Below are positions 9,442 through 63,314 of a stretch of DNA of 64,000 nucleotides, piece by piece; the first letter of the stretch is position 1, and the number at the start of each line of letters is the position of its first letter. This DNA comes from Thermoanaerobaculia bacterium (lineage in GTDB: Bacteria; Acidobacteriota; Thermoanaerobaculia; UBA5066): positions 512,001 through 576,000 of the forward strand of contig CAWFJJ010000028.1 of NCBI GenBank assembly GCA_963816185.1, written 5' to 3'. Position numbers and translations under genes: made by a program. The notes below the pieces were generated by a model. It saw only the letters and a list, made by a program, of their open reading frames with translations, had not been told where the DNA came from and ran no database searches.

Positions 9442-10284
9442 TCAGAGCGCAGGGCGGGACAGTGCCGGCGAGCCCCAGAACGCGAGGACGCGTCTGACGT
9501 AATCGCGCGTCTCGCGATAGGGCGGAACGCCCCCGTGCTCCTCGACCGCGTGCTCCCCCGCGTTGTACGCCGCGAGGATCAGGTCTGGGTTCGTCTCGCC
9601 GAATCGCTCGGCCAGCTCGGCAAGGTAGGCGGCGCCCGCCCGGATGTTCTCCCGCGGGTCGAAGGCGCTCTTCACGCCGAGCCGCCGCGCCGTCGCCGGC
9701 ATGAGCTGCATGAGCCCGCGTGCCCCCTTTCGGGACACCGCGCGCGGATACCCGTTCGATTCCGCCCGAATGACGGCGGCGATGAGACCCGGATCGATGC
9801 GGTTCTGTTTGGCCGCTTCGAGGATCTGCGAAGAGAAGGGAGAAGAGATCGTGGAGGAAGAGAAAGAGGCACCTGAAGAGGGGGAAAGACCCGGAGAAGA
9901 AGGGAGATTCTCCGAGAAGGCGCGGACAGAACGAGGAGCGGGTCGGAGGGCATCGCTCGCGAGGCTCGCCGCCGCGCTCTCGGGCACAGGCGCCGGGCGC
10001 TCGTATTCCTCGTCCACGATGCGTTCGACGACGTCGAGCGGAATCGTCATCGAGCCGCCTCCGACGAGACCCACCGTCAGGCGGTCGTCTTCGACGACCT
10101 CGTAGCTCGCGACGCGCAGATGCCGCCCGTCCTCGAAGACGACGAGGGATGCGGCGGCGGAAGGTGCCGAGAGCATCGAGAGCAGGAGGCCACCCGCTGC
10201 CGCAGCCTCACTCACCCTTCTAAGAAAATCTTCTCTTCCCCCGGTCTCCGTCTTAAGCAAAATATTCCTCTTCCGATTCGTCAT
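9442..10284 (-). CDS. Lytic transglycosylase (SLT domain)
   Basis: ATGA overlap with the xerD stop; AVIRAES, GARGLMQLMP, AAYNAG, ETRDYV motifs. Confidence 0.9.
   Translation of the reverse strand: MTNRKRNILLKTETGGREDFLRRVSEAAAAGGLLLSMLSAPSAAASLVVFEDGRHLRVASYEVVEDDRLTVGLVGGGSMTIPLDVVERIVDEEYERPAPVPESAAASLASDALRPAPRSVRAFSENLPSSPGLSPSSGASFSSSTISSPFSSQILEAAKQNRIDPGLIAAVIRAESNGYPRAVSRKGARGLMQLMPATARRLGVKSAFDPRENIRAGAAYLAELAERFGETNPDLILAAYNAGEHAVEEHGGVPPYRETRDYVRRVLAFWGSPALSRPAL
10218..10274. repeat. TTCTAAGAA-family element (arm plus degenerate tandem arm) at the xerD/slt junction
   Basis: TTCTAAGAAAATCTTCTCTTCCC at 10218 and TCTTAAGCAAAATATTCCTCTTCC at 10251. Confidence 0.65.
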
Positions 10285-11207
10285 GCCCGCGGGTGCGTCC
10301 GGTCGTAGACCTTCCGGACGCGGGAGCGGGACACGTGAGTGTAGATCTCGGTCGTCGCGATGTCCGCGTGGCCGAGCATCATCTGCACGGCACGCAGATC
10401 GGCGTCGTTGTCCACGAGGTGCGTCGCGAACGCGTGCCTCAGGACGTGCGGCGACACGGCGGACGCGGGTAGACCTGCCTTCCGCGCGGCGGCCTTCAGC
10501 GCGAGGAAGACCGTCTGCCTCGTGATCGGCCTTCCGCGCGCGCCGGGGAAGACCCATCGTGCCGCGGCGCCGGGCCTTTCGGCCCTGACCGCCTGAAGGT
10601 AGCGCGCGACCCAGCGAGCGGACGAGTCGGCGATCGGAACGACCCTTTCTTTCGCCCCTTTTCCGCGAACGAGGAGAAATCCCTCCGAAAGGCGCAGCGC
10701 CTCCACGGGAAGGGCGGCGAGCTCGGAGACGCGCAGGCCGCACGCGTAGAGCACCTCGAAGAGCGCCCGGTTTCGGAGGCCGCGCGGCGTCGCGACGTCG
10801 GGCGCGTCGAGAAGCCGCGTCACGTCCTCGGGCGAGAGCACTTTCGGAAGCATCGTCCATCGGCGGGCGTTCGTGAGGTCGGCCGTCGGGTCGGTCTCGA
10901 GCACCTTTTCCGCCGAGAGAAAGGCATAGAGGCCGCGCAGCGCCGACGTCACGCGAGCCAGCGTGCGGGGTGACATGCCGTCCGCGCGCCTCGCGCCGAG
11001 AAACGCCACGATGTCCTGGCGGGTGACGCCCGCCGGATCGGTTCGCGAAGAGGCGAGGAATCGGCCGAATCCCTCGAGATCGCGGCGGTAGGCCTCCAGC
11101 GTATTCGCGGCAAGACCCTTCTCGGCCGAGAGGTAGTCCAGGAAGAGCGGGAGGTGCTTCTGGAAGTAGACGCCGGCCGGCGTTTTGGCAGGAGATCCCG
11201 AACTCAC
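10281..11207 (-). CDS. xerD: Tyrosine recombinase XerD-like
   Basis: LYACGLRVSEL, GKGAKER, SPHVLRHAFATHL, LGHADIATTEIYTHV; N-terminal SAM-like domain. Confidence 0.85.
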   Translation of the reverse strand: MSSGSPAKTPAGVYFQKHLPLFLDYLSAEKGLAANTLEAYRRDLEGFGRFLASSRTDPAGVTRQDIVAFLGARRADGMSPRTLARVTSALRGLYAFLSAEKVLETDPTADLTNARRWTMLPKVLSPEDVTRLLDAPDVATPRGLRNRALFEVLYACGLRVSELAALPVEALRLSEGFLLVRGKGAKERVVPIADSSARWVARYLQAVRAERPGAAARWVFPGARGRPITRQTVFLALKAAARKAGLPASAVSPHVLRHAFATHLVDNDADLRAVQMMLGHADIATTEIYTHVSRSRVRKVYDRTHPRA

Positions 11208-11245
11208 TCGGCCATTCTACGGAAGCGGAGCCCCTCGCGTCGGAT

Positions 11246-12517: not shown

Positions 12518-12577
12518 CGCGCTCTCCTCGCCGGGCACGCCTTCCCGCCCGGCCGCTCCCCGGACTAAGATCGCATT

Positions 12578-13738: not shown

Positions 13739-13747
13739 CAAGGAAGG

Positions 13748-13835
13748 GAAGAGAAAGAGATTTCTTAGAATGAATAAGACGGACCAGCGGCACTGGCTCT
13801 CTTCTTTTCTAAGCAAATCTCTCTTCTTTCTCTTC
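13748..13835. repeat. TTCTTAGAA-family imperfect inverted repeat (hppD/hmgA junction)
   Basis: GAAGAGAAAGAGATTTCTTAGAA (13748-13770), 36 nt spacer, TTCTAAGCAAATCTCTCTTCTTTCTCTTC (13807-13835). Confidence 0.8.
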
Positions 13836-13845
13836 GGACATTCAC

Positions 13846-14997: not shown

Positions 14998-15004
14998 GAA
15001 GTCC

Positions 15005-15736: not shown

Positions 15737-15803
15737 TCTTCGGCGGCCGAAACCTTCGCGTCGCCGTCGCGTAACTCCTCCGATGCACCCATCCGGAGGA
15801 CCG

Positions 15804-17201: not shown

Positions 17202-17212
17202 GGAAGGACGCC

Positions 17213-18616: not shown

Positions 18617-18632
18617 GCGCGGCCGGAGCTCT

Positions 18633-19981: not shown

Positions 19982-20857
19982 TCAGGCCCGCCGGTTCCCC
20001 CGCTCGTCATATTCATAGAATCCTCTCCCGGTCTTTCTTCCGTACCGCCCCGCAAGCACCATCCGTTTCAGGAGCGGCGGCGGCGCGAAGCGGGACTCGC
20101 GGTACTCGGTGAACATGATCTCCGCGATCGCGTACACGGTGTCGAGTCCGACGTAATCGAGAAGCTCGAACGGGCCCATGGGATGCGCGCAGCCCAGCTT
20201 CATGCCCGTGTCGACGTCCTCGAGCGAGCCCACGCCCTGCTCGTACGCGCGGATCGCGTCGAGGAGGTACGGCACGAGCAATCGGTTGACCACGAACCCC
20301 GAGTTGTCGCGCGCCGCGATGGGCTCCTTGCCGAGGGAACGGGCGAAGGCCGTCACGCGCGCCACCGTCTCGTCGGAAGTCCCGATCGCCCGCACGACCT
20401 CCACGAGCTTCATCACGGGGACGGGGTTGAAGAAGTGCATCCCGGCGAAGCGGTCCGGCCGCGCCGTGGCAGCCGCCATCTCGGCGATCGTGAGCGACGA
20501 CGTGTTCGAGCAGAAGATCGCGTGCGGCGCACATAGCTTGTCGAGCGCCTTGAACACCCCGCGTTTGGCCTCGAGGTTCTCGACAATCGCCTCGCTGACG
20601 AGATCGACCGAAGAGAATCTTTCGAGTGAAGAGGAGAAGTGCAGCCGCGAGAGGATCGCGGATTCATCCTCTTCTCGCAGCTTGCCGCGTTGCTTTGCCT
20701 TCGAAAGGGATTGCGTGATGCGCCTGCGCCCTTTCTCGATCAGCTCGTCGCTGGGTTCGCGGACGACGACCTCGTAGCCTGCCTTCGCGCACACCTCCGC
20801 GATTCCCGACCCCATCAATCCGGCTCCGAGAACTCCGACGGTCTTGATCTCGCTCAT
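19982..20857 (-). CDS. 3-hydroxybutyryl/3-hydroxyacyl-CoA dehydrogenase
   Basis: GAGLMGSGIA, EAIVEN, SNTSS, GMHFFNP, GFVVNR, HPMGPF. Confidence 0.93.
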   Translation of the reverse strand: MSEIKTVGVLGAGLMGSGIAEVCAKAGYEVVVREPSDELIEKGRRRITQSLSKAKQRGKLREEDESAILSRLHFSSSLERFSSVDLVSEAIVENLEAKRGVFKALDKLCAPHAIFCSNTSSLTIAEMAAATARPDRFAGMHFFNPVPVMKLVEVVRAIGTSDETVARVTAFARSLGKEPIAARDNSGFVVNRLLVPYLLDAIRAYEQGVGSLEDVDTGMKLGCAHPMGPFELLDYVGLDTVYAIAEIMFTEYRESRFAPPPLLKRMVLAGRYGRKTGRGFYEYDERGNRRA

Positions 20858-20890
20858 ACAGCACGCCCCACCACGGCGCACGTGCCTGCG

Positions 20891-20938
20891 AATCTCACTC
20901 TTCCCCTCTTAACCATTCTAAGAATCCTCCGTCTCTTC
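20891..20938. repeat. TTCTAAGAA-family arm (thiolase/hbd junction)
   Basis: TTCTAAGAATCCTCCGTCTCTTC at 20916 within an AT/CT-rich spacer. Confidence 0.6.
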
Positions 20939-20948
20939 GAACTTTGCC

Positions 20949-22136
20949 TTACGAGAGACCCTCTACGACCAGCGCCATGCCTTGCCCTCCCCCGATGCAG
21001 GCCGAGGCGAGGCCCCAGCGCTTGCCGCGCCGTCGGAGCTCCTTGAGAAGCGTGAGCGTCAGCCGCGCGCCGCTCGCCCCCAGCGGATGTCCGAGCGCGA
21101 TCGCGCCGCCGTTCACGTTCAGCTTCGTGCGATCGACCCCCAGCTCCTTGATGACTCCGAGAATCTGGCCCGCGAACGCCTCGTTGATCTCGACGAGGTC
21201 CATGTCGCCGAGCGACTTCCCCGCCTTCGCGAGCGCCGCGCGGCACGCCGAGACGGGTCCGAGACCCATTTCGGCGGGCTCGCAGCCCGTGACGGCCTCC
21301 GCCACGAGGCGACCGAGCGGGACGATCCCTTTCGCGCGCGCCTTCTCTTCGGTCGTCACGACCATGGCCACCGCCCCATCCACGATTCCCGACGCGTTGC
21401 CCGCCGTGACCATCCCGTCCTTCCCGAACGCCGGGGCCAGCTTCGCGAGCCCTTCGAGCGTCGAATCCACCGTCAGATGGTCGTCCTCGGACACAGTGAC
21501 GGTTTTGCGCCCCTTCTTCGCTTCGACCGCGATGATCTCTTCCGCGAGCCGCCCCTTCGCGCGGGCGTCGGCGGCCTTCTTCTGGCTTTCGAGCGCGAAC
21601 GCGTCCTGCTCCTCGCGTGAGACGCCGTAGCGCCGAGCGACGTTGTCCGAGGTCTGTGCCATCGCGAGGCCGGGAACCGTGTCGAAAAGGCTGCTCATGA
21701 GCGCGTCTTCGAGCTTGCCCTGTCCGAGCCTGAGCCCGGTCCGGGCGCCGCGGATGACGAACGGCGCCTGACTCATATTCTCCGTGCCGCCGGCGAGCAC
21801 GGCGTCCGTCTCGCCGAGGAGGATCCTCTGTTTCGCCTGGACGATCGCCTCGAAGCCGGAGCCGCACAGGCGGTTCACCGTGAGCGCGGGCACCTCCTTC
21901 GGCACTGCCGACCGGAGGCCGACATGGCGGGCGAGGTAGATGGCGTCGGACGAGGTCTGCAGTACGTTCCCGAAGATCACATGCCCGACCTCCCCGGGCT
22001 CGAAACGAGCCCGGCGCAGAGCTTCGCGGGAGGCTGCGACGGCGAGGTCGGTTGCAGAGGTGTCTGCGAAGAAGCCGTTGTAGTCGGCCATCGCCGTGCG
22101 GACACCTTCGGCGACAACGATCGAAAAGGTGGTCAT
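20949..22136 (-). CDS. Acetyl-CoA C-acyltransferase (thiolase)
   Basis: NRLCGSG, TAGNASG, EINEAF, GHPLGASG, CIGGGQG. Confidence 0.95.
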   Translation of the reverse strand: MTTFSIVVAEGVRTAMADYNGFFADTSATDLAVAASREALRRARFEPGEVGHVIFGNVLQTSSDAIYLARHVGLRSAVPKEVPALTVNRLCGSGFEAIVQAKQRILLGETDAVLAGGTENMSQAPFVIRGARTGLRLGQGKLEDALMSSLFDTVPGLAMAQTSDNVARRYGVSREEQDAFALESQKKAADARAKGRLAEEIIAVEAKKGRKTVTVSEDDHLTVDSTLEGLAKLAPAFGKDGMVTAGNASGIVDGAVAMVVTTEEKARAKGIVPLGRLVAEAVTGCEPAEMGLGPVSACRAALAKAGKSLGDMDLVEINEAFAGQILGVIKELGVDRTKLNVNGGAIALGHPLGASGARLTLTLLKELRRRGKRWGLASACIGGGQGMALVVEGLS

Positions 22137-22175
22137 CGCCGGATTCTATCCCGGCGAATTCCCGTTGGACCCTTT

Positions 22176-22838
22176 TTAAGGTTTGCGTGAAGCCGAGCTC
22201 GCGGCGTTTCTCTCCGGTTCCTTGAAGAGAGGCTTCTCCAGCGCATCCTGCGCCGTTGCGAGGCGCGACCGGAACGGCTCGAGAGTCCTCATGTTCGAGC
22301 GGACGGCGTCACTCTCGCGCACTTTCGATTCCCGGCGCACCCGTTCGGCTTCCGCCTCGAATTGCGCCGTCTGCTCCGCGAGGAGTTTTCGCGAGCCTTC
22401 GTCGGCAGCGTCCCCCCGCCGGGCCTTCAGGTCCGCCAGCGTCTTCTCGAGCATCGCGAGGGCCGAGGTGTTGAGCCGGGCGGTCATCGTCGCCGCCTCG
22501 GCTTCGAGAACGCGCTCCTTGACCCAGAGGAACTCCTCGACGTTCACGCGGCGGGCCCGTGCCGCGGCGACGTCCGCCGGAACGGTCGAGAGAGGATCGC
22601 TTTCGGGTGTAGGCCGCGCTCCCCGCCGGTCGAGACGCACGCGTTCGAGAATGGACAGAAACATCTGGATCTGGGCCGCCGTCACGCGCCCGTCGGCGGG
22701 AGGCCGGTAAACGTCGCGCGGCTCGGGGGGCTGCGACAGAGGCGCGCTCGTGGACGCTGCGGGATTCGAGTCGGGCGAGCCGCAACCGACGCCGGCGGCC
22801 GCGAGAACGACGAGGAGGGTGCGAACGCAATGGCGCAC
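22176..22838 (-). CDS. Hypothetical lipoprotein, helical/coiled-coil
   Basis: Hydrophobic leader ending AAGVG|C; TATCAT 6 nt upstream of the GTG. Confidence 0.6.
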   Translation of the reverse strand: MRHCVRTLLVVLAAAGVGCGSPDSNPAASTSAPLSQPPEPRDVYRPPADGRVTAAQIQMFLSILERVRLDRRGARPTPESDPLSTVPADVAAARARRVNVEEFLWVKERVLEAEAATMTARLNTSALAMLEKTLADLKARRGDAADEGSRKLLAEQTAQFEAEAERVRRESKVRESDAVRSNMRTLEPFRSRLATAQDALEKPLFKEPERNAASSASRKP

Positions 22839-28084: not shown

Positions 28085-29630
28085 GTGGAACTTCCTCCCG
28101 ACGCGCGCGGAGAATACCGGCCACCAGCCCTGCCGCGCAAACCCACGCCACCGCGTCGCCTGCGGCCGTCGCGGGCGGCTTTGCGGAGGGCCGCTCGAGC
28201 AGCACGGCGAATGCGCCTTTCGTGTCGGGACCGAGCGTGACGAGAACGTTCCCCCTTCCATCCACCGCTCCGCTGATTCCGGTGATCGCCGCGCGCACGA
28301 GAGGACGGCCGGTCTCGATCGCGCGCAGGACGGCCGACTGCCAGTGCTGCCGCTGCGCGCCGGCACGTCCGTACCAGGCGTCGTTCGTGAGCGTGAACAG
28401 GACGTCGGCTCCCGCGCGCGTCTCCTCCCGCGCGATCCACGGGTAGACGACCTCGTAGCACACGGCACCCCCGAGCCTCCAGCTCCCGAGCGGCAGCAGA
28501 GCCGCCCCGGTTCCGGGAGTGAACGCCGACGGCACCGCACGGCTGATCGGCCGGATCATCCGAAAGAGGCCGGCGAGCGGCACGTACTCGCCGAAAGGCA
28601 CCAGCCGCTGCTTGAAGTAAGGCGGCGTCACGGGGCCGTCTTTCGTCACGAGAAGGGCAGCGTTGTAGAACGGCGCGTCCGGATTGCCTGGCTCGTCGGA
28701 CCAGACCGTGCTCAGAAGGATCGCGATGTCGAGCTCTTTGCAGAGAGTGACGACCCGGTCGCGGAAGGCGGGCGCGAACGACCAGGCGTAGGGTGCCGCG
28801 CTTTCCGGCCACAGCACGAGGACCGGCCGGCCGTGGCGGCACAGGCTCCGGGTCTGGTCCTCGAGACCGTCGAAGAGGCGTTCTGCGGTTCCGGCTTCCC
28901 AGCGAAGGTCCTGTGCCACGTTCGGCTGGACGACCCCGACCTTGAGGAACTCTCCTGACGCGCGCGGCCGCGGGGGCCCGGCCGCTCCCGCGATCACCGC
29001 CGCGAGCGTCGCGCCCGCGAGCCACGCCAGGCGCAGGTTTCGTACGGGCCGCGTGAGCGCGACGAAGAGCGCCGCGTTCAGAGCCGCCACGAGAAACGAG
29101 GAGAGCAAGACGCCTCCGAGAGCGGCGGTGCCGAGCAGCTGAGGGACGTCGGCGAGCGGGTTCGCGAGGAGCGCCCACGGGAAGCCGCCGAAGATCCAGA
29201 CGGTCGTGCGAAAGAGCTCCTGGAGTACCCACGCCGCGCCGAAGGTCGCCACGACGCCGGCGGCCGAGCGCGGCGCGACCCACGCGTAGAGGAGGCTCAT
29301 GACGCCGAACGGCACCGCACAAATCGCGGCGGCGAGCACGAGCGCGAGGACCGCGACGAACCCGGGAACGCCGCCAAAGCGGTGCACGGTGTAGGCGATC
29401 CAGGGAATCGTCACGATCCAGAAGGCGAGGCCGAAGACATAGCCGAGAAATGCTGCGTCCTTCGGACGCGCGCCGTCGAGCGCGGCGACCAGCGGGATCA
29501 GCGCGACGGGAAGCAGCGGAAGGATCGAAAAGTTCGGAAAACACAGCGCTAGAAGGACGCCGGAGGCGAGAGAGAAGAGAAGACGAGAGATTTTCTTAGA
29601 AGGTAATACGGACAACGAAAGCAAAATCAA
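28065..29630 (-). CDS. lnt: Apolipoprotein N-acyltransferase
   Basis: Multiple TM helices, GFPW, VQPN, WPES, KQRLVPFGEYVP, VCYE, TNDAWYG, RAIE. Start uncertain (TTG overlapping the lipA stop). Confidence 0.93.
   Translation of the reverse strand: MILLSLSVLPSKKISRLLFSLASGVLLALCFPNFSILPLLPVALIPLVAALDGARPKDAAFLGYVFGLAFWIVTIPWIAYTVHRFGGVPGFVAVLALVLAAAICAVPFGVMSLLYAWVAPRSAAGVVATFGAAWVLQELFRTTVWIFGGFPWALLANPLADVPQLLGTAALGGVLLSSFLVAALNAALFVALTRPVRNLRLAWLAGATLAAVIAGAAGPPRPRASGEFLKVGVVQPNVAQDLRWEAGTAERLFDGLEDQTRSLCRHGRPVLVLWPESAAPYAWSFAPAFRDRVVTLCKELDIAILLSTVWSDEPGNPDAPFYNAALLVTKDGPVTPPYFKQRLVPFGEYVPLAGLFRMIRPISRAVPSAFTPGTGAALLPLGSWRLGGAVCYEVVYPWIAREETRAGADVLFTLTNDAWYGRAGAQRQHWQSAVLRAIETGRPLVRAAITGISGAVDGRGNVLVTLGPDTKGAFAVLLERPSAKPPATAAGDAVAWVCAAGLVAGILRARREEVPRERRTH
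29568..29616. repeat. TTCTTAGAA-family arm at the lipA/lnt junction (inside the lnt 5' end)
   Basis: GAGAGAGAAGAGAAGACGAGAGATTTTCTTAGAAGGTAATACGGAC; core at 29593. Confidence 0.7.
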
Positions 29631-30508
29631 TCTTTCTTCGGCGCGAACTCTTCCGCCCGGTAGCTCGAGCGGACGAACGGGCCGGAGAAGACGGCCGAGA
29701 AGCCGAGCTCCATTCCCTGCGCCTCGAGAGACGCGAAGCGCTCGGGCGTCGCGTATTCCACGACGGGCAGGTTCCACGCGGAGGGCCTGAGGTACTGCCC
29801 CACCGTGACGACGTCGACGCCGGCGCCGCGCAGCGCGCGAAAGACGTCCACGACTTCGTCGTCCTCCTCGCCGAGGCCGAGCATGAGGCCGGACTTCGTC
29901 GTCATGGCCGGATGCCGCGCCTTCACCCGGGCGAGGAGATCCACGGAGCGGCGAAACGCCGACTTCGGGCGGACGCTGCCGTAGAGGCGGGGAACCGTCT
30001 CGACGTTGTGGTTGTAGACGTCCGGGCCGGAATCCGCGACGCGGTCGATCGCCTCCGCGGCCCCCCGGAAGTCGGGTGTCAGCACCTCGACCGTGCGGGA
30101 GAGGTCGTTGTCCTTCAGCGCCCTCACGACGGCCGCCCAGTGCGCCGAGCCCCCGTCGTCGAGGTCGTCGCGGTCCACGGACGTCACCACGATGTGCCGG
30201 ATTCCCATCTCGTTCGCCGCGTCGACGAGGCGCCTCGGCTCTTCCGGGTCGAGGGGCGAAGGACGCCCGGACGTGATGTGGCAGAAGCCGCACGCACGCG
30301 TGCAGACGTCGCCCGCGATGAGAAACGTGGCCGTCTTCCGCTCGAAGCATTCCGTGCGGTTCGGGCAGCGGGCCTCCTCGCAGACCGTCGAGAGGCTTCC
30401 GCGGCGCATTCGCGCCTTCATTTCATGGAGCTCGGCGAGCCGCAGCTTTTTCTTGCGAATCCAGACGGGGAGGGCGGGCGTTCCTCGGACAGGCTGAGGG
30501 CGGCTCAT
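29627..30508 (-). CDS. lipA: Lipoyl synthase
   Basis: CEEARCPNRTEC, CTRACGFC, TSVDRDDL, NHNVETV, RSSY. Confidence 0.97.
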   Translation of the reverse strand: MSRPQPVRGTPALPVWIRKKKLRLAELHEMKARMRRGSLSTVCEEARCPNRTECFERKTATFLIAGDVCTRACGFCHITSGRPSPLDPEEPRRLVDAANEMGIRHIVVTSVDRDDLDDGGSAHWAAVVRALKDNDLSRTVEVLTPDFRGAAEAIDRVADSGPDVYNHNVETVPRLYGSVRPKSAFRRSVDLLARVKARHPAMTTKSGLMLGLGEEDDEVVDVFRALRGAGVDVVTVGQYLRPSAWNLPVVEYATPERFASLEAQGMELGFSAVFSGPFVRSSYRAEEFAPKKD

Positions 30509-34162: not shown

Positions 34163-35262
34163 CGCCGGTAGATCCGGCCGCCGAAGATTTCGAGGGGCTT
34201 GAGGATGTCGAGGTTGTCCTCGAGCATCCACGAGAACTCCGCCCATTTGTGGCCGATGCGGAGGCCTTCCTTCATGGCCTCGTAATAGAGGACGGCGTCG
34301 ATGCCCCGTTTGCGGTACTCCGGTAGCACCCCGAGCGCCATCGTGCGGCAGCGGTCGATCTTCTTCTTCTCCGTCAGGAACCTCAGCCAGCCGAAGGGAA
34401 ACAGCGACCCGCCCATCTTCACGAGGACCTGGTTGAAATCCGGAAGCGCGAGATGGAACGCGGCGGGCTTCCCGTCGATCTCGGCGAAGAGGATGTAAGG
34501 CGGGTAAATGACGGGCTTGAGCTTCTTCGCCATCGCGTCGATCTCCTCGGACGTCATCGGGACGAAGCCCCAGTTCTTCTCCCACGCCCCGTTGTAGATG
34601 GTCTTCACGATCGCGAGGTCTTCGTCGAACTTGTTCATGCGGATCGGCCGCACGACGAGGTTCGGCTCGCGTCGCCGCACGCCCTCGGCGATGCGCGCGA
34701 GCCGCTTGAACGAGACGTCGCTCACGGGCGCGAGGATCGCGACGAGGTCTTTCTCCTTCGAATAGCCCGCGTCCGCAAAGAGGTCGAGGTAGTACGCGGG
34801 GTTGTACGTCATCATGAGAAACGGCAGCCCCGGGTCGCTCTCCTGGGGCACGAATGCCCCCACCTCGTCGTTGAGCGATGGGTTCGCGGGGCCGCGCAGC
34901 CGGTCGCAGCCCGGCAGCATCTCGCGCACGGCTGCCTCGGCGGCACGGAGAAGAGCGGTCGAGACCTCCCGGTCGTTCTCACTTTCGAAGAATCCGAAGA
35001 ATCCCGTCTTCTCCCCGTGGACCCTGTTGTGTTCATCGTCGACGATCGCCGCGATTCGCCCGACGACCCGGCCGTCTTTTCGCGCCAGAAACAGTCTTCT
35101 CTTCGCGTGCTTCCAGAAAGGGTTCCTCTTTTCGTCAAGAATCCAGCGAACGTCCGAGCGCAGCGGTGGCGGCCAGCTCGGGTCGCCGGCGTAGATCCGA
35201 TACGCCAGCTCGACGAATTCGCGGAGCGCACGGGGCGAGTCGACGGATTCGATCTTGATCAT
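34135..35262 (-). CDS. GNAT-fold N-acyltransferase, candidate bacterial ceramide synthase (bCerS/YghO-like)
   Basis: IY.GDP.W.PPL, NPFW, VGRIAA, GFFGFFE, MTYNPAYY, NWGFVP, LGVLPEYRKRG, SWMLEDN; directly downstream of the SPT-like gene. Confidence 0.75.
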   Translation of the reverse strand: MIKIESVDSPRALREFVELAYRIYAGDPSWPPPLRSDVRWILDEKRNPFWKHAKRRLFLARKDGRVVGRIAAIVDDEHNRVHGEKTGFFGFFESENDREVSTALLRAAEAAVREMLPGCDRLRGPANPSLNDEVGAFVPQESDPGLPFLMMTYNPAYYLDLFADAGYSKEKDLVAILAPVSDVSFKRLARIAEGVRRREPNLVVRPIRMNKFDEDLAIVKTIYNGAWEKNWGFVPMTSEEIDAMAKKLKPVIYPPYILFAEIDGKPAAFHLALPDFNQVLVKMGGSLFPFGWLRFLTEKKKIDRCRTMALGVLPEYRKRGIDAVLYYEAMKEGLRIGHKWAEFSWMLEDNLDILKPLEIFGGRIYRRYRLVAKRL

Positions 35263-35291
35263 GCTGCCTTGAGGAAATTCGCCTTCGGATT

Positions 35292-35385
35292 GAAGATTGT
35301 CTTAGAAGGGAGATGAAGCCGCGGCGAACGGGAGCGCCAGAGCGACGCGTGAAGGGCCTCGCCCCTTCATGCTTCTAAGAAATCC
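35292..35385. repeat. TTCTTAGAA-family inverted pair (spt/GNAT junction)
   Basis: GAAGATTGTCTTAGAAGG (35292) and TTCTAAGAAATCC (35373); internal GAAGGG..CCCTTC hairpin. Confidence 0.7.
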
Positions 35386-35405
35386 GAAAACCCCCGGTCC
35401 CCATC

Positions 35406-36683
35406 CTACGAAACCAGCCCCAGCTCCCGGCCCACCTTGTGGAACGCCTCGAGGGCGCGCGTGAGGTGGGCCTTCGTGTGCGTGGCCATGTAGGACGTCC
35501 GGATGAGGGCGCGGCCGGGGGGCGAGCCGGGGCTGACGACGGCGTTCACGAAGACCCCCTCGTCGTCCAGACGCGCGGCCATCTTGAACGCAAGCTCGTC
35601 CGGCCCGACGACGATCGGGATGACGGGCGTCTGGGAGTTGCCGCAGTCGAACCCGATGGCGCGCAGGGCCGTCAACATGAACCGCGTGTTCTCCCAAAGA
35701 CGCTCGCGGCGCTCGGGCTCGTTCTCGATGATGTCGAGCGCGGCGAGGACGGCCGCGACGCAGGCCGGCGGCGGCGCCGCCGTGAACATGAGCGCGCGAG
35801 CCCTGTGCTTGATGAACTTGATGACCTCCGGCTCGCCGACGACGAAGCCTCCCACGGTCGCGAGCGACTTCGAGAACGTACCCATGATGAGGTCGACTTT
35901 GTGCTCGAGGCCGAAGTGCTCGGCGGTGCCGCGACCGTGCTTGCCGAGGACGCCGACGCCGTGCGCATCGTCGATCATGAACGCCACGTCGTAGTCGTCG
36001 CAGATGCTGACGTACTCGGGGACGGGCGCGATATCGCCCTCCATCGAGAAGACGCCGTCGACTACGAGGATCCGCCCGTTGCGGTCGCCGTTCAGGGCGA
36101 GAAGCCGGCGCAGGTCAGCCGGATCGTTGTGCTTGAACTTCTTGACGTCGGCCCCGACCGCGAGGCGCGCGCCGTCGTAGATGCAGGCGTGGTCCTGCCG
36201 GTCGAGGTAGATCGCGTCGCCCTTGCCCGCGAGCGAGGACAGGACGCCGAGGTTGACGAGAAAGCCCGTCGAAAACGTCACGCAGGCCGGTTTCTCCATG
36301 AAAACGGCGAGGCGCTCTTCCAGCTCGACGTGGATGTCGAGCGTCCCGTTCAGGAGGCGGCTGCCGGCGCAGCCCGCGCCGTACTTCCTGACGGCCTCGA
36401 TCGCGCGCTCCTTGATCTTCGGATGCGAGGTCAGGCCGAGGTAGTTGTTCGACCCCAGCATGACCATCTCCCGGCCCCCCATCATGACGACCGGGTCCTG
36501 GCCCGACTCGATGGTCCTGAAGAAGGTAAACAGGCCGGCGGCGCGAAGCTCGTCGGGTACCGTATAAGTTCGACACTTATCGAAAAGTGAGCGGCTCAAG
36601 GCGGGTTCCGCGATGACATTCGACCGACCAAGCATCGATTCATCCTCTGCGGCTGCGGGCCGCGCCCCGTGGTGCTGTCTCAT
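35406..36683 (-). CDS. PLP-dependent alpha-oxoamine synthase, probable serine palmitoyltransferase
   Basis: GSNNYLGL, GCAGSRLLNGTLDIH, DGVFSMEGD, DDAHG, GTFSKSLA (SPT-type lysine motif). BioF/Kbl not excluded. Confidence 0.75.
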   Translation of the reverse strand: MRQHHGARPAAAEDESMLGRSNVIAEPALSRSLFDKCRTYTVPDELRAAGLFTFFRTIESGQDPVVMMGGREMVMLGSNNYLGLTSHPKIKERAIEAVRKYGAGCAGSRLLNGTLDIHVELEERLAVFMEKPACVTFSTGFLVNLGVLSSLAGKGDAIYLDRQDHACIYDGARLAVGADVKKFKHNDPADLRRLLALNGDRNGRILVVDGVFSMEGDIAPVPEYVSICDDYDVAFMIDDAHGVGVLGKHGRGTAEHFGLEHKVDLIMGTFSKSLATVGGFVVGEPEVIKFIKHRARALMFTAAPPPACVAAVLAALDIIENEPERRERLWENTRFMLTALRAIGFDCGNSQTPVIPIVVGPDELAFKMAARLDDEGVFVNAVVSPGSPPGRALIRTSYMATHTKAHLTRALEAFHKVGRELGLVS

Positions 36684-43665: not shown

Positions 43666-44577
43666 ATGCGCCACCAGATCCTGACCGCTCTCCTCCTCGC
43701 CGCCGGGGCCGCGAACGCCTCCTCATCGTCCGGTTTCGGCCTCGAGGTCCTCGTCGACGGACGCGAGCGTCCCGAGTACGAGGCACGCGGCACCGTCTAC
43801 GTCGAGGCCCTTCGCGGCCGCGATTACGCGCTTCGCCTTTCGAACCCGACGGGCACGCGCGTCGCCGTAGCGCTCTCGGTCGACGGGCTGAACACGATCG
43901 ACTCGCGCCGAACTTCGGCCCGGGATGCGCGCAAATGGGTTCTCGCGCCTTACGAGACCGTCGTCATTCCGGGCTGGCAGGTCTCGACCGCGGCGTCGCG
44001 AAAGTTCTTCTTCACGGGCGAGCGCGGCTCCTACGGCGCGGCCCTCGGGAAAACGAAGGATCTCGGCGTCCTCGAGGCGGTGTTCTTCCGCGAGAGGCTT
44101 CCCTACCGCATCGAGAGGCGCTGGAGAAAGGGCAAGGACCAAGAAGAGATTTCTTCGAATGAAAATGAGGACTCTGCCGCCGCGGCACCGGCGGTGCCCA
44201 GCCGAGGCGGCGATCGCGACCTTTCGAAGCAATCGTCCTCTTCGGAGGGTGCCGCCGAGAAGGGTAAGCTCTCGCAGAACGAGCCGTCCGGCACGGCACG
44301 GGACCATTCGCAGAAATCTCTTTCTTCCTCTTCGTCTCCCTCCTCGGCGCTGTCCGACGAGTACGCCGCGACCGGAATGGGGCGAAAGACGCAGTTCGGC
44401 GTGACGCAAGTCGACCTCGACCTCGAGACGGAGCCCGCCGCCGTCGTGCGGCTGCGCTACGAGTTCCGGCCGCAGCTCATCGCGCTCGGCGTCCTGCCCC
44501 GTGACCCGGACTCGTCGCGCATCGCGCGCCGCGAGCGCGCCCGCGGCTTCGAGGAGTTCTGCCCCGAAGTCCGATAG
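43666..44577 (+). CDS. Secreted hypothetical protein (beta-rich domain, low-complexity insert)
   Basis: Signal peptide; YALRLSN..VALSVDGLN..IPGWQ..FFFT..LGVLEAVFFRE. Confidence 0.7.
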   Translation: MRHQILTALLLAAGAANASSSSGFGLEVLVDGRERPEYEARGTVYVEALRGRDYALRLSNPTGTRVAVALSVDGLNTIDSRRTSARDARKWVLAPYETVVIPGWQVSTAASRKFFFTGERGSYGAALGKTKDLGVLEAVFFRERLPYRIERRWRKGKDQEEISSNENEDSAAAAPAVPSRGGDRDLSKQSSSSEGAAEKGKLSQNEPSGTARDHSQKSLSSSSSPSSALSDEYAATGMGRKTQFGVTQVDLDLETEPAAVVRLRYEFRPQLIALGVLPRDPDSSRIARRERARGFEEFCPEVR

Positions 44578-46430: not shown

Positions 46431-46431
46431 G

Positions 46432-52420: not shown

Positions 52421-53241
52421 CCCCACACAAGGTCCGCACTCCCGCCGTGGCGGGAACGTTCTATCCGGGCCGTCCCGGAGAGCTGAAGCGGATGGTCGAG
52501 GATCTGCTCGCGGGCGCGCCTATCCCGGAGAAAGGCAAGGCGCCCGCGGCCCTCGTCGTTCCGCACGCGGGGTATGTCTACTCGGGCCCTGTCGCGGCGA
52601 CGGCGTACGCCAGGCTCAGCCGCATCGGCGCCTCGATCTCGCGAGTCGTGGCCTTGGGGCCGGTCCACTACATCCCGATCCGCGGTGCTGCGGTTCCGGC
52701 CGCCGGCGCCTGGGCGACGCCGCTGGGCCAGGTGCCGATCGATGATTCCCTGCGCGAGCGCGCGGTCGCGCACGGCGCCGCGGTCGACGACCGGCCGCAT
52801 GCCCCGGAGCACGCCCTCGAGGTGCAGGTTCCATTCCTCCAGTGCGTCCTCGGCGAAGGGTTTTCGTTCCTGCCCGTCGCCGTCTCGGATCAGCCGGCCG
52901 CGGAGACGGCCGATCTCATCGGGGAGTTCCTCGGCGAGGACGGCACGTTGGTCCTCGTGAGCACCGATCTGAGCCATTACCACGACCTCGCAACGGCGCG
53001 CCGCCTCGACCGCCGCACGTCGGACGCGATCCTCGGTCGCGACGCGTCGGCGCTCTCCGGCGATGACGCCTGCGGGTTCTACCCGCTGCGGGGCCTCGTC
53101 GAGCTCGCCCGAAGGAAGAACCTCCCCGTCGAGCTCCTCGACCTCAGAACGTCGGGAGACACCGCCGGCGGCCCGGAACGGGTCGTCGGCTACGGCGCGT
53201 TCGCAGTCGGGAGAGGAACAGAAGGAATTCGGATTTCTTAG
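52417..53241 (+). CDS. amrB: AmmeMemoRadiSam system protein B (MEMO1 family)
   Basis: PAVAGTFYP, VPHAGYVYSG, EHALEVQVPFLQ, STDLSHY, ACG, VVGYGAF. Confidence 0.92.
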   Translation: MTPHKVRTPAVAGTFYPGRPGELKRMVEDLLAGAPIPEKGKAPAALVVPHAGYVYSGPVAATAYARLSRIGASISRVVALGPVHYIPIRGAAVPAAGAWATPLGQVPIDDSLRERAVAHGAAVDDRPHAPEHALEVQVPFLQCVLGEGFSFLPVAVSDQPAAETADLIGEFLGEDGTLVLVSTDLSHYHDLATARRLDRRTSDAILGRDASALSGDDACGFYPLRGLVELARRKNLPVELLDLRTSGDTAGGPERVVGYGAFAVGRGTEGIRIS

Positions 53242-53364
53242 AAGGCAAGAGGGCCCTGGCGGAGTCCGCGCGTCCACGGCGCCGCCCACGGCGCCGAAGG
53301 GCGGCAAATCGGAGGCCATTGCGCTGAGACGGTGTCTCACTAACCCTTTCTAAGAGAATCTCTT
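53231..53364. repeat. TTCTTAGAA-family inverted pair (amrB/suf junction); supplies the amrB stop codon
   Basis: GGATTTCTTAGAAGG (53231) and TTCTAAGAGAATCTCTT (53348). Confidence 0.7.
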
Positions 53365-53393
53365 ATCCCCTCCTGTATTGCCGCCTCTACTTC

Positions 53394-53429
53394 TTGACTA
53401 AATCAGTCCCATTTCATATCGTACTGATT
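53394..53429 (+). promoter_or_regulatory. suf promoter with overlapping Rrf2/IscR type-1-like operator
   Basis: TTGACT-17-TATCGT. GACT-AAATC-AGTC palindrome over the -35; second inverted repeat AATCAGT..ACTGATT. Confidence 0.7.
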
Positions 53430-55376: not shown

Positions 55377-56170
55377 ATCTTCTCGAAATCTCGAACCTCC
55401 ACGCCTCGATCGAGGAAGACGGCACCGAGATCCTCAAGGGGATCGACCTCGTCATCCGCCCGGGTGAAGTGCACGCGATCATGGGTCCGAACGGGTCGGG
55501 CAAGAGCACGCTCGCGCACGTCCTGTCGGGGCGGCCCGGATACGTCGTGACGCAGGGCACCGCCCGGTTCAAGGGCATGGACCTTCTCGCGATGCCCGCC
55601 GAAATGCGCGCGAGAGAGGGCATCTTCCTCGCGTTTCAGTATCCCGTCGAGATTCCGGGTGTCTCGAACACGTATTTCCTGCGGACCGCGGTCAACACCG
55701 TGCGCAAGCACCGCGGGCAGCCGGAGCTCGACGCGATCGACTTCCTCGCGCTCCTCGACGAGAAGGCGAAGCTCGTGAAGATGGAGGAGGCGCTGTTGAA
55801 CCGTTCGGTGAACGAGGGCTTCTCCGGCGGCGAGAAGAAGCGCAACGAGGTCCTCCAGATGGCGATCCTCGACCCGAAGCTCGCGATCCTCGACGAGACG
55901 GACTCGGGCCTCGACATCGACGCCCTTCGAGTCGCCGCCTCGGGCGTGAACGCCCTCCGTGACGGCGTGCGCGGGATGCTCGTCATCACGCACTACCAGC
56001 GCCTGCTCGACTACATCATCCCGGACTTCGTCCACGTCCTCTCGGACGGAAGGATCGTGAAATCCGGCGACAAGAACCTCGCGAAGGAGCTGGAGGCCAA
56101 GGGCTACTCCTGGATCGAGAAGGAGCCTCCGGCGGCGGAGTCGGCGGTCGCAGGAGCCGCGGCACGATGA
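55373..56170 (+). CDS. sufC: Fe-S cluster assembly ATPase SufC
   Basis: [45 protein letters not shown]. Confidence 0.98.
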
Positions 56171-58805: not shown

Positions 58806-59257
58806 TGACGGACCTGCGAGATCTCTATCAGGAGGTCATCCTCGACCACAACAAGTCTCCCCACAACTACCGGGAGATGCCCGACGCCACGCGCCTCGCG
58901 CTCGGCAACAACCCGCTCTGCGGCGACAAGCTGAAGCTCTACGTTCGCCTCGAGGGCGACCGCATCGCGGACGTCGCGTTCCAGGGCTCGGGGTGCGCGA
59001 TCTCGAAGGCGTCCGCGTCGATCATGACCGACGCCATCAAGGGCAAGAGCCTCGCCGAAGCCGAGGCGCTGTACGGGAAGTTCCACGATCTCCTGACCGG
59101 GCCGCCCGACGTCAAGGCCGACGGCGCGGGCCTCGGCAAGCTTGCCGTCTTCTCCGGTGTCCGCGAGTTCCCGGCCCGCGTCAAATGCGCAACGCTCGCG
59201 TGGCACACGCTGGAGACGGCGCTGAAGAACACGCAAGAAGTGGCGAAGACCGAGTAA
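58805..59257 (+). CDS. sufU: SufU (NifU-like) sulfur-transfer protein
   Basis: LYQEVILDH, NPLCGD, GCAISKAS, RVKCATL. Confidence 0.95.
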   Translation: MTDLRDLYQEVILDHNKSPHNYREMPDATRLALGNNPLCGDKLKLYVRLEGDRIADVAFQGSGCAISKASASIMTDAIKGKSLAEAEALYGKFHDLLTGPPDVKADGAGLGKLAVFSGVREFPARVKCATLAWHTLETALKNTQEVAKTE

Positions 59258-59260
59258 ATG

Positions 59261-59472
59261 GAAGATAGAAGAAATGAGAGAAGAGAAGAGATTTCTTAGA
59301 AAGTAATCGGGCCAGCGGCAGCGGCGAAGCAGGCGCGGCAACGGCGGAGCGGGAAGCGATGGCCGTCTGAGCGCCTTCTAAGCAATGTATTCGGACAAAG
59401 CTCGGACGCAGCGGACGCGGCATCAGCCGCGCAGACCGCGGCGCCCGTCCACGTGCCTTCTGAGAAATCTTC
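59261..59472. repeat. TTCTTAGAA-family inverted pair plus extra degenerate arm (sufU/sufT junction)
   Basis: AG tract then GAGATTTCTTAGAAAGTAATCGGGCCAGCGGCA (core 59293); TTCTAAGCAA (59376); TTCTGAGAAATCTTC (59458). Confidence 0.75.
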
Positions 59473-59851
59473 GTCCCCCGGTCCCTCTTCGGACACCACA
59501 GGCGCGGCACCGGCAGCACAGCCCGCATCGCCCTCTGACGCGCAAAGGAATCCTCTCGAGCAGACGGTCATCGACGAGGCTTTGAAGAAGTGCTTCGACC
59601 CCGAGATCCCGGTGAACATCTGGGAGCTGGGGCTGATCTACGACGTGAGCGTGTCGCCCGAAGGCGTCGCAGACGTGAAGATGACGCTCACGGCACCCGG
59701 GTGCCCTGTCGCCGGATCCCTTCCCGGCGAGGTCGAGACGAAGATCAAAGCCGTCCCCGGCATCACCGACGCGAAGGTCGAGCTCGTCTGGGATCCGCCC
59801 TGGACCGTCGAGATGATGTCGCGCGTGGCCAAAGTCATGCTCGGGATGTGA
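59453..59851 (+). CDS. DUF59/SufT-like Fe-S assembly protein
   Basis: DPEIPVNIWELGLIY, MTLTAPGCP, VWDPPW. Start uncertain. Confidence 0.9.
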   Translation: MPSEKSSSPGPSSDTTGAAPAAQPASPSDAQRNPLEQTVIDEALKKCFDPEIPVNIWELGLIYDVSVSPEGVADVKMTLTAPGCPVAGSLPGEVETKIKAVPGITDAKVELVWDPPWTVEMMSRVAKVMLGM

Positions 59852-59893
59852 GCCGGGCCACAGCGCGAGGAGTCGTCCGCGCGGTACCGTTCG

Positions 59894-61747: not shown

Positions 61748-61766
61748 GGGGGCGAATCGAAACAGC

Positions 61767-63314
61767 CTAGGCGGAACGACTGTCCTGCATCCGCCTGCTC
61801 TCGTTCAGGCGCGGGTCCTCCGTCGCGTGGCGCAGCGAAAGCAGCCAGCCGATCCCGAACGCGATCGTCGAGCCGAGAAGCGAGTACCACGGCCACGCGA
61901 TCTTCTTTCCGAGCTCGAACGACACCCAGCCCTTCGAACCCAGCCACAGGACGAACATGAAGACGGCCGACGTCGCAATGCCGATCATCGCGTCCGTCTG
62001 AGTCGCTTTCCGCGCCCAGAGCGCGAGGAGAAACGCGCCGAGAAGGCCGCCCGCCGTCACGCTCGCCAGGCCCAGGGCGACCTGCACGGCAGGGACGTCC
62101 TGCGGCATGCGCGAAAAGCCCACGGCCAGCCCGGCGAGGACGATCGTCCAGAAAACCGTCAGAATCTTCCCGAGGACGAGGCCGCGGCGTCCCTCGACGT
62201 GCTTGTTCCCGAGCAGGGGCGCCACGATGTCGAGCGAGAGCGCCGAAGCGAGCGAGTTCAGAGCGGACGACTCCGAGCACATCGCCGCCGAGAAGATGCC
62301 CGCGACGAGGTATGCCGAGACGAACGGCGGCAGGCTCTTCACGATGAACGTCGGAAGGATCGCATCGCTGGACGGGAATCCTCCCGCCCCCACGACGCGG
62401 CCTCCGTAGAACGCGAAGAGACCGACGCCGAGCGCGAGAAACAGCGTGAACTGCAGAATGACGAGGACACCCGAACCGATGAGGGCTTTCCGGGCATCGC
62501 GCAGCCCGCGGCACGCGAGGAGGCGCTGGACGATGAGCTGGTCGGCGCCGTGCGAAGCCATGGCGAGGACTGCGCCACCGATGACTCCGGCAAACAGCGT
62601 GTAAGGTTCTGCAAAGTTCCTGGAAAGGTTGATGAGATGAACCGGCCTCCCCTGCTCCGCGCACCTTCTAAGAATCTCTTGAAATCCTCCGAATCCCCCG
62701 CCAAAGGCGCCTAGAAGGACCCAGAGTGCCATCAGCGCCCCCGAGATGTAGACGACGACCTGGATCAGGTCGATCCAGATGACGGCCTTGATGCCCCCCA
62801 GGAACGTGTAGAGAGCCGTGGCCGCCGCGAGCATCAGAATCGCGATCCACACGGGAACGCCGAGGATGAGCGCGATCGGGATCGCGGGTACCGCCAGGCG
62901 GACGCTCGCGGCCATGACGCGCGTGACCATGAAGATGAGCGACGTGAAGCGCCGCGCGCCGACGCCGAAGCGCCGTTCCAAAAGCGCGTACGCGGTCGTG
63001 ATCTCGCCCTGGAAGTAGCCGGGGAGGAGCAGGGCTGCGACCGCGATGCGCCCGAGGAGATAGCCGAACGCGAGCTGCAGGAACGTGAAGCCCGTGCGGT
63101 AGGCGTCGCCGGGAATGGAAAGGAACGTGAGCGCCGAGGTCTCCGTCGCGATGATCGACGCCATCACGGCCCACCACGGCATCGCGTGGGAGCCCAGGAA
63201 GTAGTCCTTCGCGTCCTTCTGGCCCCGCCCGAGCACCGCGCCGAGAAGGTTGATGCCTGCGAGATAGACGGCGATCGCGATCAGCGTCGGCAGCCCGAGG
63301 GAGACGCCTTCCAT
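61767..63314 (-). CDS. Sodium:solute symporter (SSS) family transporter
   Basis: DYFLG..MPWWAV, ATETSALTF, GGIKAVIWID, DQLIVQR; about 13 TM helices. Confidence 0.92.
   Translation of the reverse strand: MEGVSLGLPTLIAIAVYLAGINLLGAVLGRGQKDAKDYFLGSHAMPWWAVMASIIATETSALTFLSIPGDAYRTGFTFLQLAFGYLLGRIAVAALLLPGYFQGEITTAYALLERRFGVGARRFTSLIFMVTRVMAASVRLAVPAIPIALILGVPVWIAILMLAAATALYTFLGGIKAVIWIDLIQVVVYISGALMALWVLLGAFGGGFGGFQEILRRCAEQGRPVHLINLSRNFAEPYTLFAGVIGGAVLAMASHGADQLIVQRLLACRGLRDARKALIGSGVLVILQFTLFLALGVGLFAFYGGRVVGAGGFPSSDAILPTFIVKSLPPFVSAYLVAGIFSAAMCSESSALNSLASALSLDIVAPLLGNKHVEGRRGLVLGKILTVFWTIVLAGLAVGFSRMPQDVPAVQVALGLASVTAGGLLGAFLLALWARKATQTDAMIGIATSAVFMFVLWLGSKGWVSFELGKKIAWPWYSLLGSTIAFGIGWLLSLRHATEDPRLNESRRMQDSRSA

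Follow-up and report, generated by a model that had tools for sequence, protein, structure and literature searches.

The window analysed in this study, the whole stretch of 64,000 nucleotides G000:C28:512001-576000, comes from a Thermoanaerobaculia bacterium whose assembly (G000) comprises 5,088,052 bases in 30 contigs, and it carries a dispersed repeat family built around the AT-rich, near-palindromic 9-mer TTCTTAGAA. A total of eight exact copies of this 9-mer were found in the window (10218-, 13762+, 20916-, 29593+, 35373-, 53235+, 59293+ and 62666-). Dinucleotide shuffles of the window gave a mean of 0.13 copies, and eight or more copies were reached in none of 100 shuffles. Genome-wide analysis revealed that the 9-mer is the core of a longer directional arm, and that the arms are independent instances of one consensus, conserved in place above their surroundings, and that some of the arms originated in place inside coding sequence. 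The original prediction, made from the letters of the window, had listed the same eight copies, one-mismatch copies at 13807, 35299, 53348, 59376 and 59458 and a G+C content of about 68%; every one of these copies is present, and the G+C content was measured as 0.66-0.69.

Analysis of the neighbouring genes with Pfam confirmed the seven gene junctions at which these copies had been placed: Phage_integrase/SLT, HPPD/HgmA, thiolase/3HCDH, radical-SAM/LNT, aminotransferase/GNAT, Memo/Rrf2 and NifU_N/FeS_assembly_P. The exact copy at 62666 is the exception: its site is within the coding sequence of a sodium:solute symporter, where the frame is open and the Pfam family SSF matches on both sides. 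The four inverted pairs proposed for the window are real, with spacers of 36, 65, 104 and 74 nucleotides (nt), and scanning with a position matrix added a second facing partner of the core at 59293, at 59458. The elements of the window are listed below with the strand of their cores and their matrix scores.

10206 to 10252, minus strand: single arm at the XerD-like integrase / SLT transglycosylase junction; exact core 10218-10226; score 37.9.
13739 to 13845: full pair filling the HPPD/HgmA spacer; cores 13762-13770 (plus) and 13807-13815 (minus), 36-nt spacer; scores 42.1 and 35.4.
20904 to 20950, minus strand: single arm at the thiolase / 3-hydroxyacyl-CoA dehydrogenase junction; exact core 20916-20924; score 30.2.
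29565 to 29640, plus strand: left arm at the radical-SAM (LipA-like) / LNT junction; exact core 29593-29601; score 40.4.
35275 to 35405: pair between an aminotransferase (Spt-like) gene and a GNAT gene; cores 35299-35307 (plus, one mismatch) and 35373-35381 (minus), 65-nt spacer; scores 24.6 and 21.4.
44125 to 44340: pair absent from the original prediction; cores 44151-44159 (plus, TTCTTCGAA variant) and 44307-44315 (minus), 147-nt spacer; scores 40.3 and 23.4.
53210 to 53380: pair between the Memo/AmrB and Rrf2 regulator genes; cores 53235-53243 (plus) and 53348-53356 (minus), 104-nt spacer; scores 31.7 and 32.0.
59265 to 59490: composite element between the SufU-like and SufT-like genes; core 59293-59301 (plus) with facing cores 59376-59384 and 59458-59466 (both minus); scores 38.2 and 22.1.
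62610 to 62700: arm in the sodium:solute symporter gene; core 62666-62674 (minus) with a decayed facing arm at 62617-62625; scores 22.7 and 10.6.

The over-representation seen in the window holds genome-wide. In the whole G000 assembly 337 exact copies of TTCTTAGAA were counted, compared with a median of two among 8,816 canonical 9-mers with at most two G/C, and the density is one exact core per 15 kb. The sole AT-rich 9-mer commoner than TTCTTAGAA is A9; contig C10 contains, at about 1146-2240, 1,028 consecutive T and then 65 A, which is almost certainly an assembly artefact and the source of the A9 excess. The G000 bin is 94.9% complete with 3.4% contamination and includes duplicated small contigs, and every genome compared in this study is a metagenome bin, the sole form in which the genus is known. 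Two of the small contigs, C14 and C23, duplicate stretches of C24 and C28 at 85-100% identity, elements included, which suggests a strain mixture or redundancy of the bin.

Alignment of all 337 copies on the core revealed a purine-rich tract on its 5' side (about -28 to -3, often in GAAGAG-like units), followed by [AG]GA[TA]T, the core itself and, on the 3' side, the consensus G/A, G, K, G, A, A with a few more purines, so that the inner arm reads GG(K)GAA(K)RGGG. This agrees with the flanks first described for the window, a purine-rich tract with GAT(T) to one side of the core and GG to the other; the "(G)TAAT..CGG" stretch that had been singled out as well does recur, yet as one variant of the inner consensus. 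The arm has no sharp end, because information content declines gradually on either side of the core. Only the 4+1+4 core is self-complementary, and the flanks are purine-rich on both sides of it on one strand. The central T of the core tracks the orientation of the flanks, and the word is therefore directional despite its near-palindromic core. The arm is thus a directional word of about 30-45 bp with the 9-mer as its core.

The position matrix, built from the 337 copies, found 948 arms in G000 at a score of at least 16 and 861 at a score of at least 18, compared with 41 and 15, respectively, in an order-3 Markov genome of the same size. This gives one arm per about 5.6 kb. The Markov genome served as the control for arm scans; the reversed matrix is a poor control since purine tracts read the same backwards. 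The commonest core variants among the matrix arms are TTCTTCGAA (222) and TTCTTTGAA (52). Arms and genes were called with our own crude scripts.

Arms predominantly stand face to face. Among the 337 exact cores, 246 have a facing partner (at most one mismatch) within 450 nt downstream and 37 have a back-to-back partner upstream; when only distances of 55-85 nt are considered, 29 cases are facing and none is back to back. A total of 316 confident pairs (385 at a laxer cut) were found in G000 by matrix scan, compared with none in the order-3 Markov genome, together with 68 confident single arms. Pair spacers range from 31 to about 360 nt, with the mode at 65-69 nt and a second peak at 84 nt that is the arm spacing of a Ser/Thr kinase gene family (15 pairs). 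A mode of 66-68 nt also dominates 108 pairs from other genomes.

The spacers are GC-rich and mutually unrelated in sequence. All-versus-all BLAST of 308 interiors returned mainly nested hits, duplicated contigs and kinase paralogues, with a few locus pairs sharing sequence, and no conserved column was found between the arms in an alignment of 24 canonical elements from other genomes. Comparison of 293 non-nested pairs over four segments revealed that the left and right arms of the same element are as alike as arms of different elements (same versus different: 0.513/0.515, 0.797/0.798, 0.570/0.570 and 0.492/0.491). Nothing therefore keeps the two arms complementary beyond the consensus that they share.

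For the analysis of gene context only confident pairs and single arms were masked before genes were called again; masking of all arms scoring at least 16 damaged real genes. Of 316 pairs, 203 are between co-oriented, 93 between divergent and 20 between convergent genes, so the original prediction of operon-internal junctions was too narrow. The co-oriented, divergent and convergent classes account for 72%, 14% and 14% of intergenic regions by count (62%, 24% and 14% by length), and the pairs are therefore depleted about two-fold between convergent genes. This is the opposite of repetitive extragenic palindromic (REP) sequences and of DNA uptake sequences (DUS) and uptake signal sequences (USS), the pairs of which gather after convergent genes. 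Among the single arms, 22 are co-oriented with both neighbouring genes, 23 are opposed to both, and 18 and 4 are mixed.

Several simple explanations of the pairs were tried and rejected. A model in which the two arms on either side of a single gene pair with each other was not borne out, as likeness within 117 neighbouring pairs does not exceed that of random pairs. A mini open reading frame (ORF) or three-frame stop module is not consistent with spacer lengths that obey no 3-nt rule and with arms that leave one frame open. No match to a sigma-70 promoter was found inside the arm, and the sole promoter-like site near an element of the window lies outside the element.

The family is taxonomically narrow. 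The paired pattern occurs in 23 of 24 other genomes of the same uncultured Thermoanaerobaculia genus and in none of 16 genomes from the two other families of the order, and the reversed pattern used as a control gave no match in any genome scanned. A 13-mer of the arm was found in all 24 genomes of the genus (10-86 copies each, a spread of about eight-fold) and in four of seven genomes of the sister genus (2-5 copies, with facing pairs there too); it was found in none of 26 genomes of the other genera of the family and in none of 63 genomes of the other two families of the order, and its reversed control gave no hit. When one genome of each bacterial and archaeal species was scanned, at least 108 stretches matched, and among the matches listed all belong to Thermoanaerobaculia or Acidobacteriota metagenome bins. 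A viral contig collection yielded no match to the pair pattern or to a 20-nt arm. The arm family is thus restricted to the genus and faint in the sister genus. No paper on the motif was found; among the literature matches listed, as far as their partly accessible texts go, only unrelated uses of the 9-mer appear.

Conservation was analysed over 470 kb of a relative, G011, in which the flanks are about 85% identical to those in G000. Among 38 pairs with both anchors, 33 are at the same site in the two genomes and five sites differ. Identity counting gaps is highest in the arms (0.86), followed by the purine flanks (0.79), the outer, mostly coding flanks (0.77) and the interiors (0.65), which carry 20% gaps. 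The arm at 10218 is conserved in G011 and in a further relative, G003. The Memo/Rrf2 element of the window is a clear example of the contrast between arms and interior: both its arms are near-identical in G011, and its spacer is diverged and 25-30 nt shorter there. The 44151/44307 region is present in G011 at similar length, and the ORF pieces around it have no Pfam family. At 29593 the same left arm is followed in G011 by a spacer about 136 nt longer and by a degenerate right arm; the spacer and right core of this pair are deleted in G000. One site that appeared empty in G011 is a deletion between two TTC triplets and not a virgin site.

Differences in gene content between the window and G011 fall exactly at elements (the 20916 and 35299/35373 sites). 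G011 retains the arm of the 20916 site without the adjoining thiolase gene (window 20840-22210), and holds 5.7 kb in place of the 35299/35373 pair of the window (35220-35406). At three more element sites G011 is longer by 1.3-1.7 kb.

A promoter-like site (TTGACT, 17 nt, TATCGT) was identified at 53394-53422, just downstream of the Memo/Rrf2 element, in surroundings that are nearly invariant between G000 and G011. Since this near-invariant site stands between the element and the gene for Rrf2, the suf regulator, it is probably the suf promoter and operator.

The histories of filled and empty alleles were followed at two loci, HPPD/HgmA and SufU/SufT. At HPPD/HgmA the genes adjoin or overlap each other (-1 to 7 nt) in 15 of the 26 genomes measured, including the three closest relatives; in these three the whole 107-nt element is missing, and stop and start abut. 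Five of the 26 genomes have 29-56 nt with one arm or the purine tract only, and six, counting the genome of the window, have a full pair in 100-170 nt. When a tree was built from the coding sequence on either side of the junction, the 11 alleles that are filled or partly filled occupied no fewer than six distinct positions, and distant clades share an identical empty state. The filled alleles share site-specific features, namely an unusual inner motif; the sequence TCGGAC-N5-7-start at the right edge; and, in four of them, an unusual right core. They are therefore of one origin. At SufU/SufT, among 28 relatives, the alignment is uninterrupted in three, the left arm at least is retained in 17, whose spacers differ in length, and the alignment ends short of the arm in eight, with the flanks at most 9 nt apart in seven of these. 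Contigs from RNA libraries (two runs of one study, from relatives 90-95% alike) join 59218 to 59549 and skip 330 nt; this joint therefore represents a relative without the whole SufU/SufT spacer, in agreement with the empty alleles. The simplest account of such patchy alleles would be exchange between lineages by homologous recombination.

These alleles also bear on the possibility, raised by the original prediction, of a mobile family such as REP sequences, their paired forms (REPINs) or miniature inverted-repeat transposable elements (MITEs). In its most plausible form this would be an old, non-autonomous MITE- or REPIN-like family, moved in trans by an unrecognised enzyme, with most copies now immobile relics. 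The outward form fits: the arms are inverted and terminal, as in MITEs (246 of 337 cores facing; 316 pairs versus none simulated), the canonical unit has a characteristic length, the position is intergenic, whole units are present or absent between species (107 nt at HPPD/HgmA; five of 38 sites between G000 and G011), and copy number varies eight-fold among species of the genus. Empty orthologous sites, for which a comparison of relatives had been proposed, were indeed found at the two junctions, without a clear target duplication. TGA stands at both ends of the HPPD/HgmA insert, and a 3-bp duplication is possible; it doubles as stop codon and start context, and the repeat may be just that. 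The other filled/empty pairs against G011 are too diverged for target duplication to be judged.

No enzyme matching such a family was identified in the searches made. The REP-associated tyrosine transposase (Y1/RAYT, PF01797) has no match in G000, and no TnpB gene was found in G000; the control for the RAYT search matched in six of 14 genomes. IS3-type and IS110-type transposase genes are present in the genome, a point in favour of such a family. No exact core lies within about 1.5 kb at 18 transposase loci (DDE_Tnp_1, rve, IS110 and DDE_3; about 3.3 kb each), and the single DDE_Tnp_1 element has unrelated ends of 42 nt. The RAYT or insertion sequence (IS) transposase flanked by arms that the original prediction suggested looking for was thus not found. 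The lack of a common interior, of a sharp terminus and of any greater likeness between arms of one element also speaks against mobility, and so does the conservation of arms at fixed sites above neutral sequence, which is unexpected for a dead selfish element. In view of this, and of the copies inside genes described next, we consider a mobile origin of this kind distinctly unlikely.

Copies clearly inside genes are few. The first ORF calling placed 160 cores inside genes; most of these are read-through of pyrimidine tracts and a minority are real. Coding signal before, within and after the element was found for 35 of the 316 pairs, and some of the weaker cases may be due to chance. The symporter arm at 62666 is read as E-I-L-R-R in rare codons in an open frame. 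It occurs in all six genus genomes compared, each of which also has, about 40 nt off, a facing arm that has decayed to a varying degree. Three genomes of three other genera have ordinary GC-rich codons at the homologous position and none has the arm, with a length difference of 9 nt. The symporter arm therefore arose by substitution and not by insertion, since it replaces homologous codons with a change of only 9 nt in length. The decay of one symporter arm is not compensated in the facing arm.

The second case is the Ser/Thr kinase gene family. This family is very large: most genomes of the genus give 12 or more matches, and tandem clusters of the genes are frequent (in G000 at C24:600-621 kb, C28:51.6 kb, C6:41.5 kb and others; in relatives, for example, at G006:C4:362-422 kb). 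Every gene of the family has the arm pair within its kinase domain, where the left arm encodes D-F-L-E-G-E-E and the right arm F-E-E-I, around the conserved alpha-C/beta-4 region. In 15 aligned paralogues the arm positions hold rare codons (TTA, GGT, GAA, TCA), neighbouring synonymous sites vary, and the sixth core base is A, C or T, which alters the amino acid. TTA accounts for 0.25% of leucine codons, and of 271 F-L-E tripeptides 25 are encoded by the core, with 0.12 expected. In the kinase and symporter copies alike the arm replaces homologous codons with a length difference of at most 9 nt, an origin by substitution that a MITE- or REPIN-like family does not predict. TTCTTCGAA and TTCGAAGAA, both frequent variants, spell the arm in its two orientations without a stop codon.

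The elements could also act in RNA, as the original prediction had considered in proposing an mRNA hairpin or processing signal. The purine-rich, Shine-Dalgarno (SD)-like half, which comes first in any transcript across the element, would pair with the pyrimidine-rich, anti-SD-like half that comes second in a long imperfect hairpin that affects stability, processing or translation of the mRNA between cistrons. In a sample of 110 of the 132 elements with 55-90-nt spacers, the cores pair (at least six of nine positions) in the minimum-energy fold of 76%, and the full elements fold modestly better than shuffles (mean z -1.64). Many copies lie between co-transcribed genes, every filled HPPD/HgmA allele ends in TCGGAC, 5-7 nt and the start codon, and the right arm, compared by eye, is similar to the 3' terminus of the organism's 16S rRNA together with the first part of the trailer. 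Against this, the interiors are not structured, with folds no more stable than those of shuffled sequences (mean z -0.54, 12% below -2), and the pairing given by RNAalifold is confined to the invariant cores, with a covariation term of -0.15. Arm mismatches on the transcribed strand in the 203 pairs between co-oriented genes show no excess of G.U over A.C: the G.U share is 435 of 904 overall (0.48), 41 of 80 in the core, 134 of 274 in the inner and 219 of 427 in the outer segment (0.48-0.51). Single arms have no strand preference, 93 of the 316 pairs stand between divergent genes, and the decayed in-gene arm is uncompensated by its partner. Rfam gave no match to TTCTTAGAA elements, and no terminator-like site was found at the arms; canonical hairpin-plus-T-run terminators do occur elsewhere in G000. 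An RNA role is accordingly very improbable in our judgement, and the hairpin/processing proposal is not upheld.

The 16S rRNA likeness is recorded here as a separate observation. Where the 16S gene ends and its trailer begins (C1:445.5 kb), the sequence resembles the right arm and its flank, and the left arm is therefore partly complementary to the anti-SD tail. The resemblance may be chance.

Overall, our best reading is that the TTCTTAGAA arms are a form of genomic punctuation, like REP sequences and the bacterial interspersed mosaic elements (BIMEs) that they form or like uptake signals, and not a currently mobile MITE or an RNA hairpin. The signal is symmetric at the DNA level, as seen in the balanced G.U mismatches and in the single arms that face either way. 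More specifically, the arms may be a signal on double-stranded DNA that is maintained by the host and read by a putative sequence-specific protein or complex in contact with two arms; we put this forward tentatively, at somewhat less than an even chance. On this account the protein or complex would read each arm as a double-stranded DNA site and would bind two arms at once, the sites would be kept in place across the genus, and filled alleles would spread between lineages by homologous recombination. A nucleoid or DNA-binding-protein site and an uptake-like sequence, both among the suggestions of the original prediction, survive the tests made in this study and form the leading pair.

In the uptake-like alternative, the arm would be an uptake signal or another tag of self DNA, and a bias in uptake or processing, together with homologous recombination, would spread arm alleles without benefit at each site. 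Much of the evidence would be expected from it: the very strong over-representation on both strands, a word specific to the genus and faint in the sister genus, in-gene copies that arose by substitution with stop-free variants (TTCTTCGAA, TTCGAAGAA) where the frame demands, and conservation of the motif above its surroundings at orthologous sites. The filled and empty alleles scattered over the genus at two junctions, those filled at HPPD/HgmA being of one origin, agree with it as well, and so does the absence of cores from all 18 transposase-bearing loci of about 3.3 kb. ComEC, DprA and ComEA-type genes are present; such genes are near-universal, however, and controls match in 10-11 of 14 genomes. 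DUS and USS occur at about one copy per kb, with many of the copies inside genes, and their pairs gather between convergent genes as terminators. The arms are, in contrast, sparse, nearly all intergenic and, as pairs, depleted between convergent genes (20 of 316), and neither the face-to-face pairs about 67 nt apart nor the purine tracts are accounted for by uptake. We therefore regard this alternative as unlikely, though it is the main rival to a host-maintained, protein-read signal.

A number of observations weigh against the host-maintained, protein-read signal that we prefer. Elements of 100-170 nt come and go as wholes where genes are closely spaced, which resembles the insertion of units and not gradual evolution of a site; their arrival there is accounted for by none of the readings. 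Clear in-gene copies are few, and with a strict coding filter 3 of 194 F-L-E use the core (0.09 expected). A rigid looped complex would predict a helical periodicity of 10-11 bp in spacer lengths, and none was found; a weak signal at 8-9.5 bp rests on few peaks, including the 15 pairs with the 84-nt spacer. The range of spacer lengths, 31 to about 360 nt, counts against it as well. Exact cores are clustered in the 470 kb of G011, where 47 cores leave eight of 24 segments empty (23 segments of 20 kb and one of 10 kb). A simple operator would have no evident use for the long purine tracts, the reader protein is putative, and the gene and arm calls come from crude scripts.

A broader formulation, in which the arms are a genus-specific signal of self DNA, serving as a putative tag for uptake or recombination or as the anchor of a two-site chromosomal protein, is possible and on the doubtful side. 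If true, the pressure behind it would suffice to replace stretches of coding sequence by rare-codon versions and to move filled alleles from one species to another. To our knowledge, a self-DNA signal of that kind would be the first described in Acidobacteriota, and we know of no DUS, USS or REP system in which directional arms stand face to face about 67 bp apart. With arms that behave as independently maintained copies of one directional word, spacers of free sequence yet preferred length, and some copies made within conserved genes at the price of poorer codon usage, the family points to a sequence-specific DNA-reading system in a widespread uncultured lineage of soil and sediment, and such a system would offer a concrete bait for its protein. 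In practical terms, about 350 near-palindromic elements per genome can mislead gene callers, as our own ORF caller read through many of them, and they may complicate assembly and binning.

A second repeat family was noticed in G000. It is about 150 nt long, has 25 copies and is matched by GTCAAGGGTC, 2-4 nt and GACCGCTG; examples are at C1:566957, C24:525726, C25:105047, C28:480799 and C29:80969 (loci L186-L190), and none lies in the window. This family is intergenic and contains a long palindrome and a second short hairpin, with a conserved interior, unlike the TTCTTAGAA pairs. Rfam gave no family at threshold for this repeat. At least seven of 67 single TTCTTAGAA arms have a copy of it 30-60 nt inward.

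Comparison with known systems revealed partial likeness to several of them. With the REP/BIME elements of enterobacteria and the REPINs of Pseudomonas the TTCTTAGAA family shares a copy number in the hundreds, short repeats outside genes that often form inverted doublets around a linker of lower conservation, restriction to a lineage and stability at orthologous sites; the BIME is itself a binding site for host proteins. It differs from REP and REPIN in that the arm is not itself a hairpin, the arms of a doublet do not co-vary and there is no RAYT, and further in that its pairs seldom lie between convergent genes but often lie upstream of genes and that some coding copies arose by substitution. 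With DUS/USS it shares a 9-mer core with an extended directional flank, equal use of both strands, a taxon-specific dialect, copies inside genes, conservation of the motif beyond its context and inverted pairs. The density of TTCTTAGAA is, however, 5-15 times lower, the copies are almost all intergenic, the arms carry purine tracts, and the pairs are about 67 nt apart where those of DUS/USS form tight terminator stems.

MITEs such as the Correia elements of Neisseria and the Rickettsia palindromic elements are likewise about 100-170 bp long with inverted ends, are intergenic or in frame, and vary in presence and absence. Unlike them, the TTCTTAGAA family has no common interior, sharp ends, clear target duplication or parent IS, and its in-gene copies replace homologous codons and add no insert. 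Mycobacterial interspersed repetitive units (MIRUs) also occupy spacers between genes of operons, and the HPPD/HgmA copy, like them, holds a small ORF that ends across the next start codon; the TTCTTAGAA elements differ in being non-tandem, without fixed orientation or frame and without a 3-nt rule for spacers. Dispersed short repeats of bacteria are usually filed as MITE/REP, as uptake signals or as RNA elements, and the TTCTTAGAA family fits none of these cleanly.

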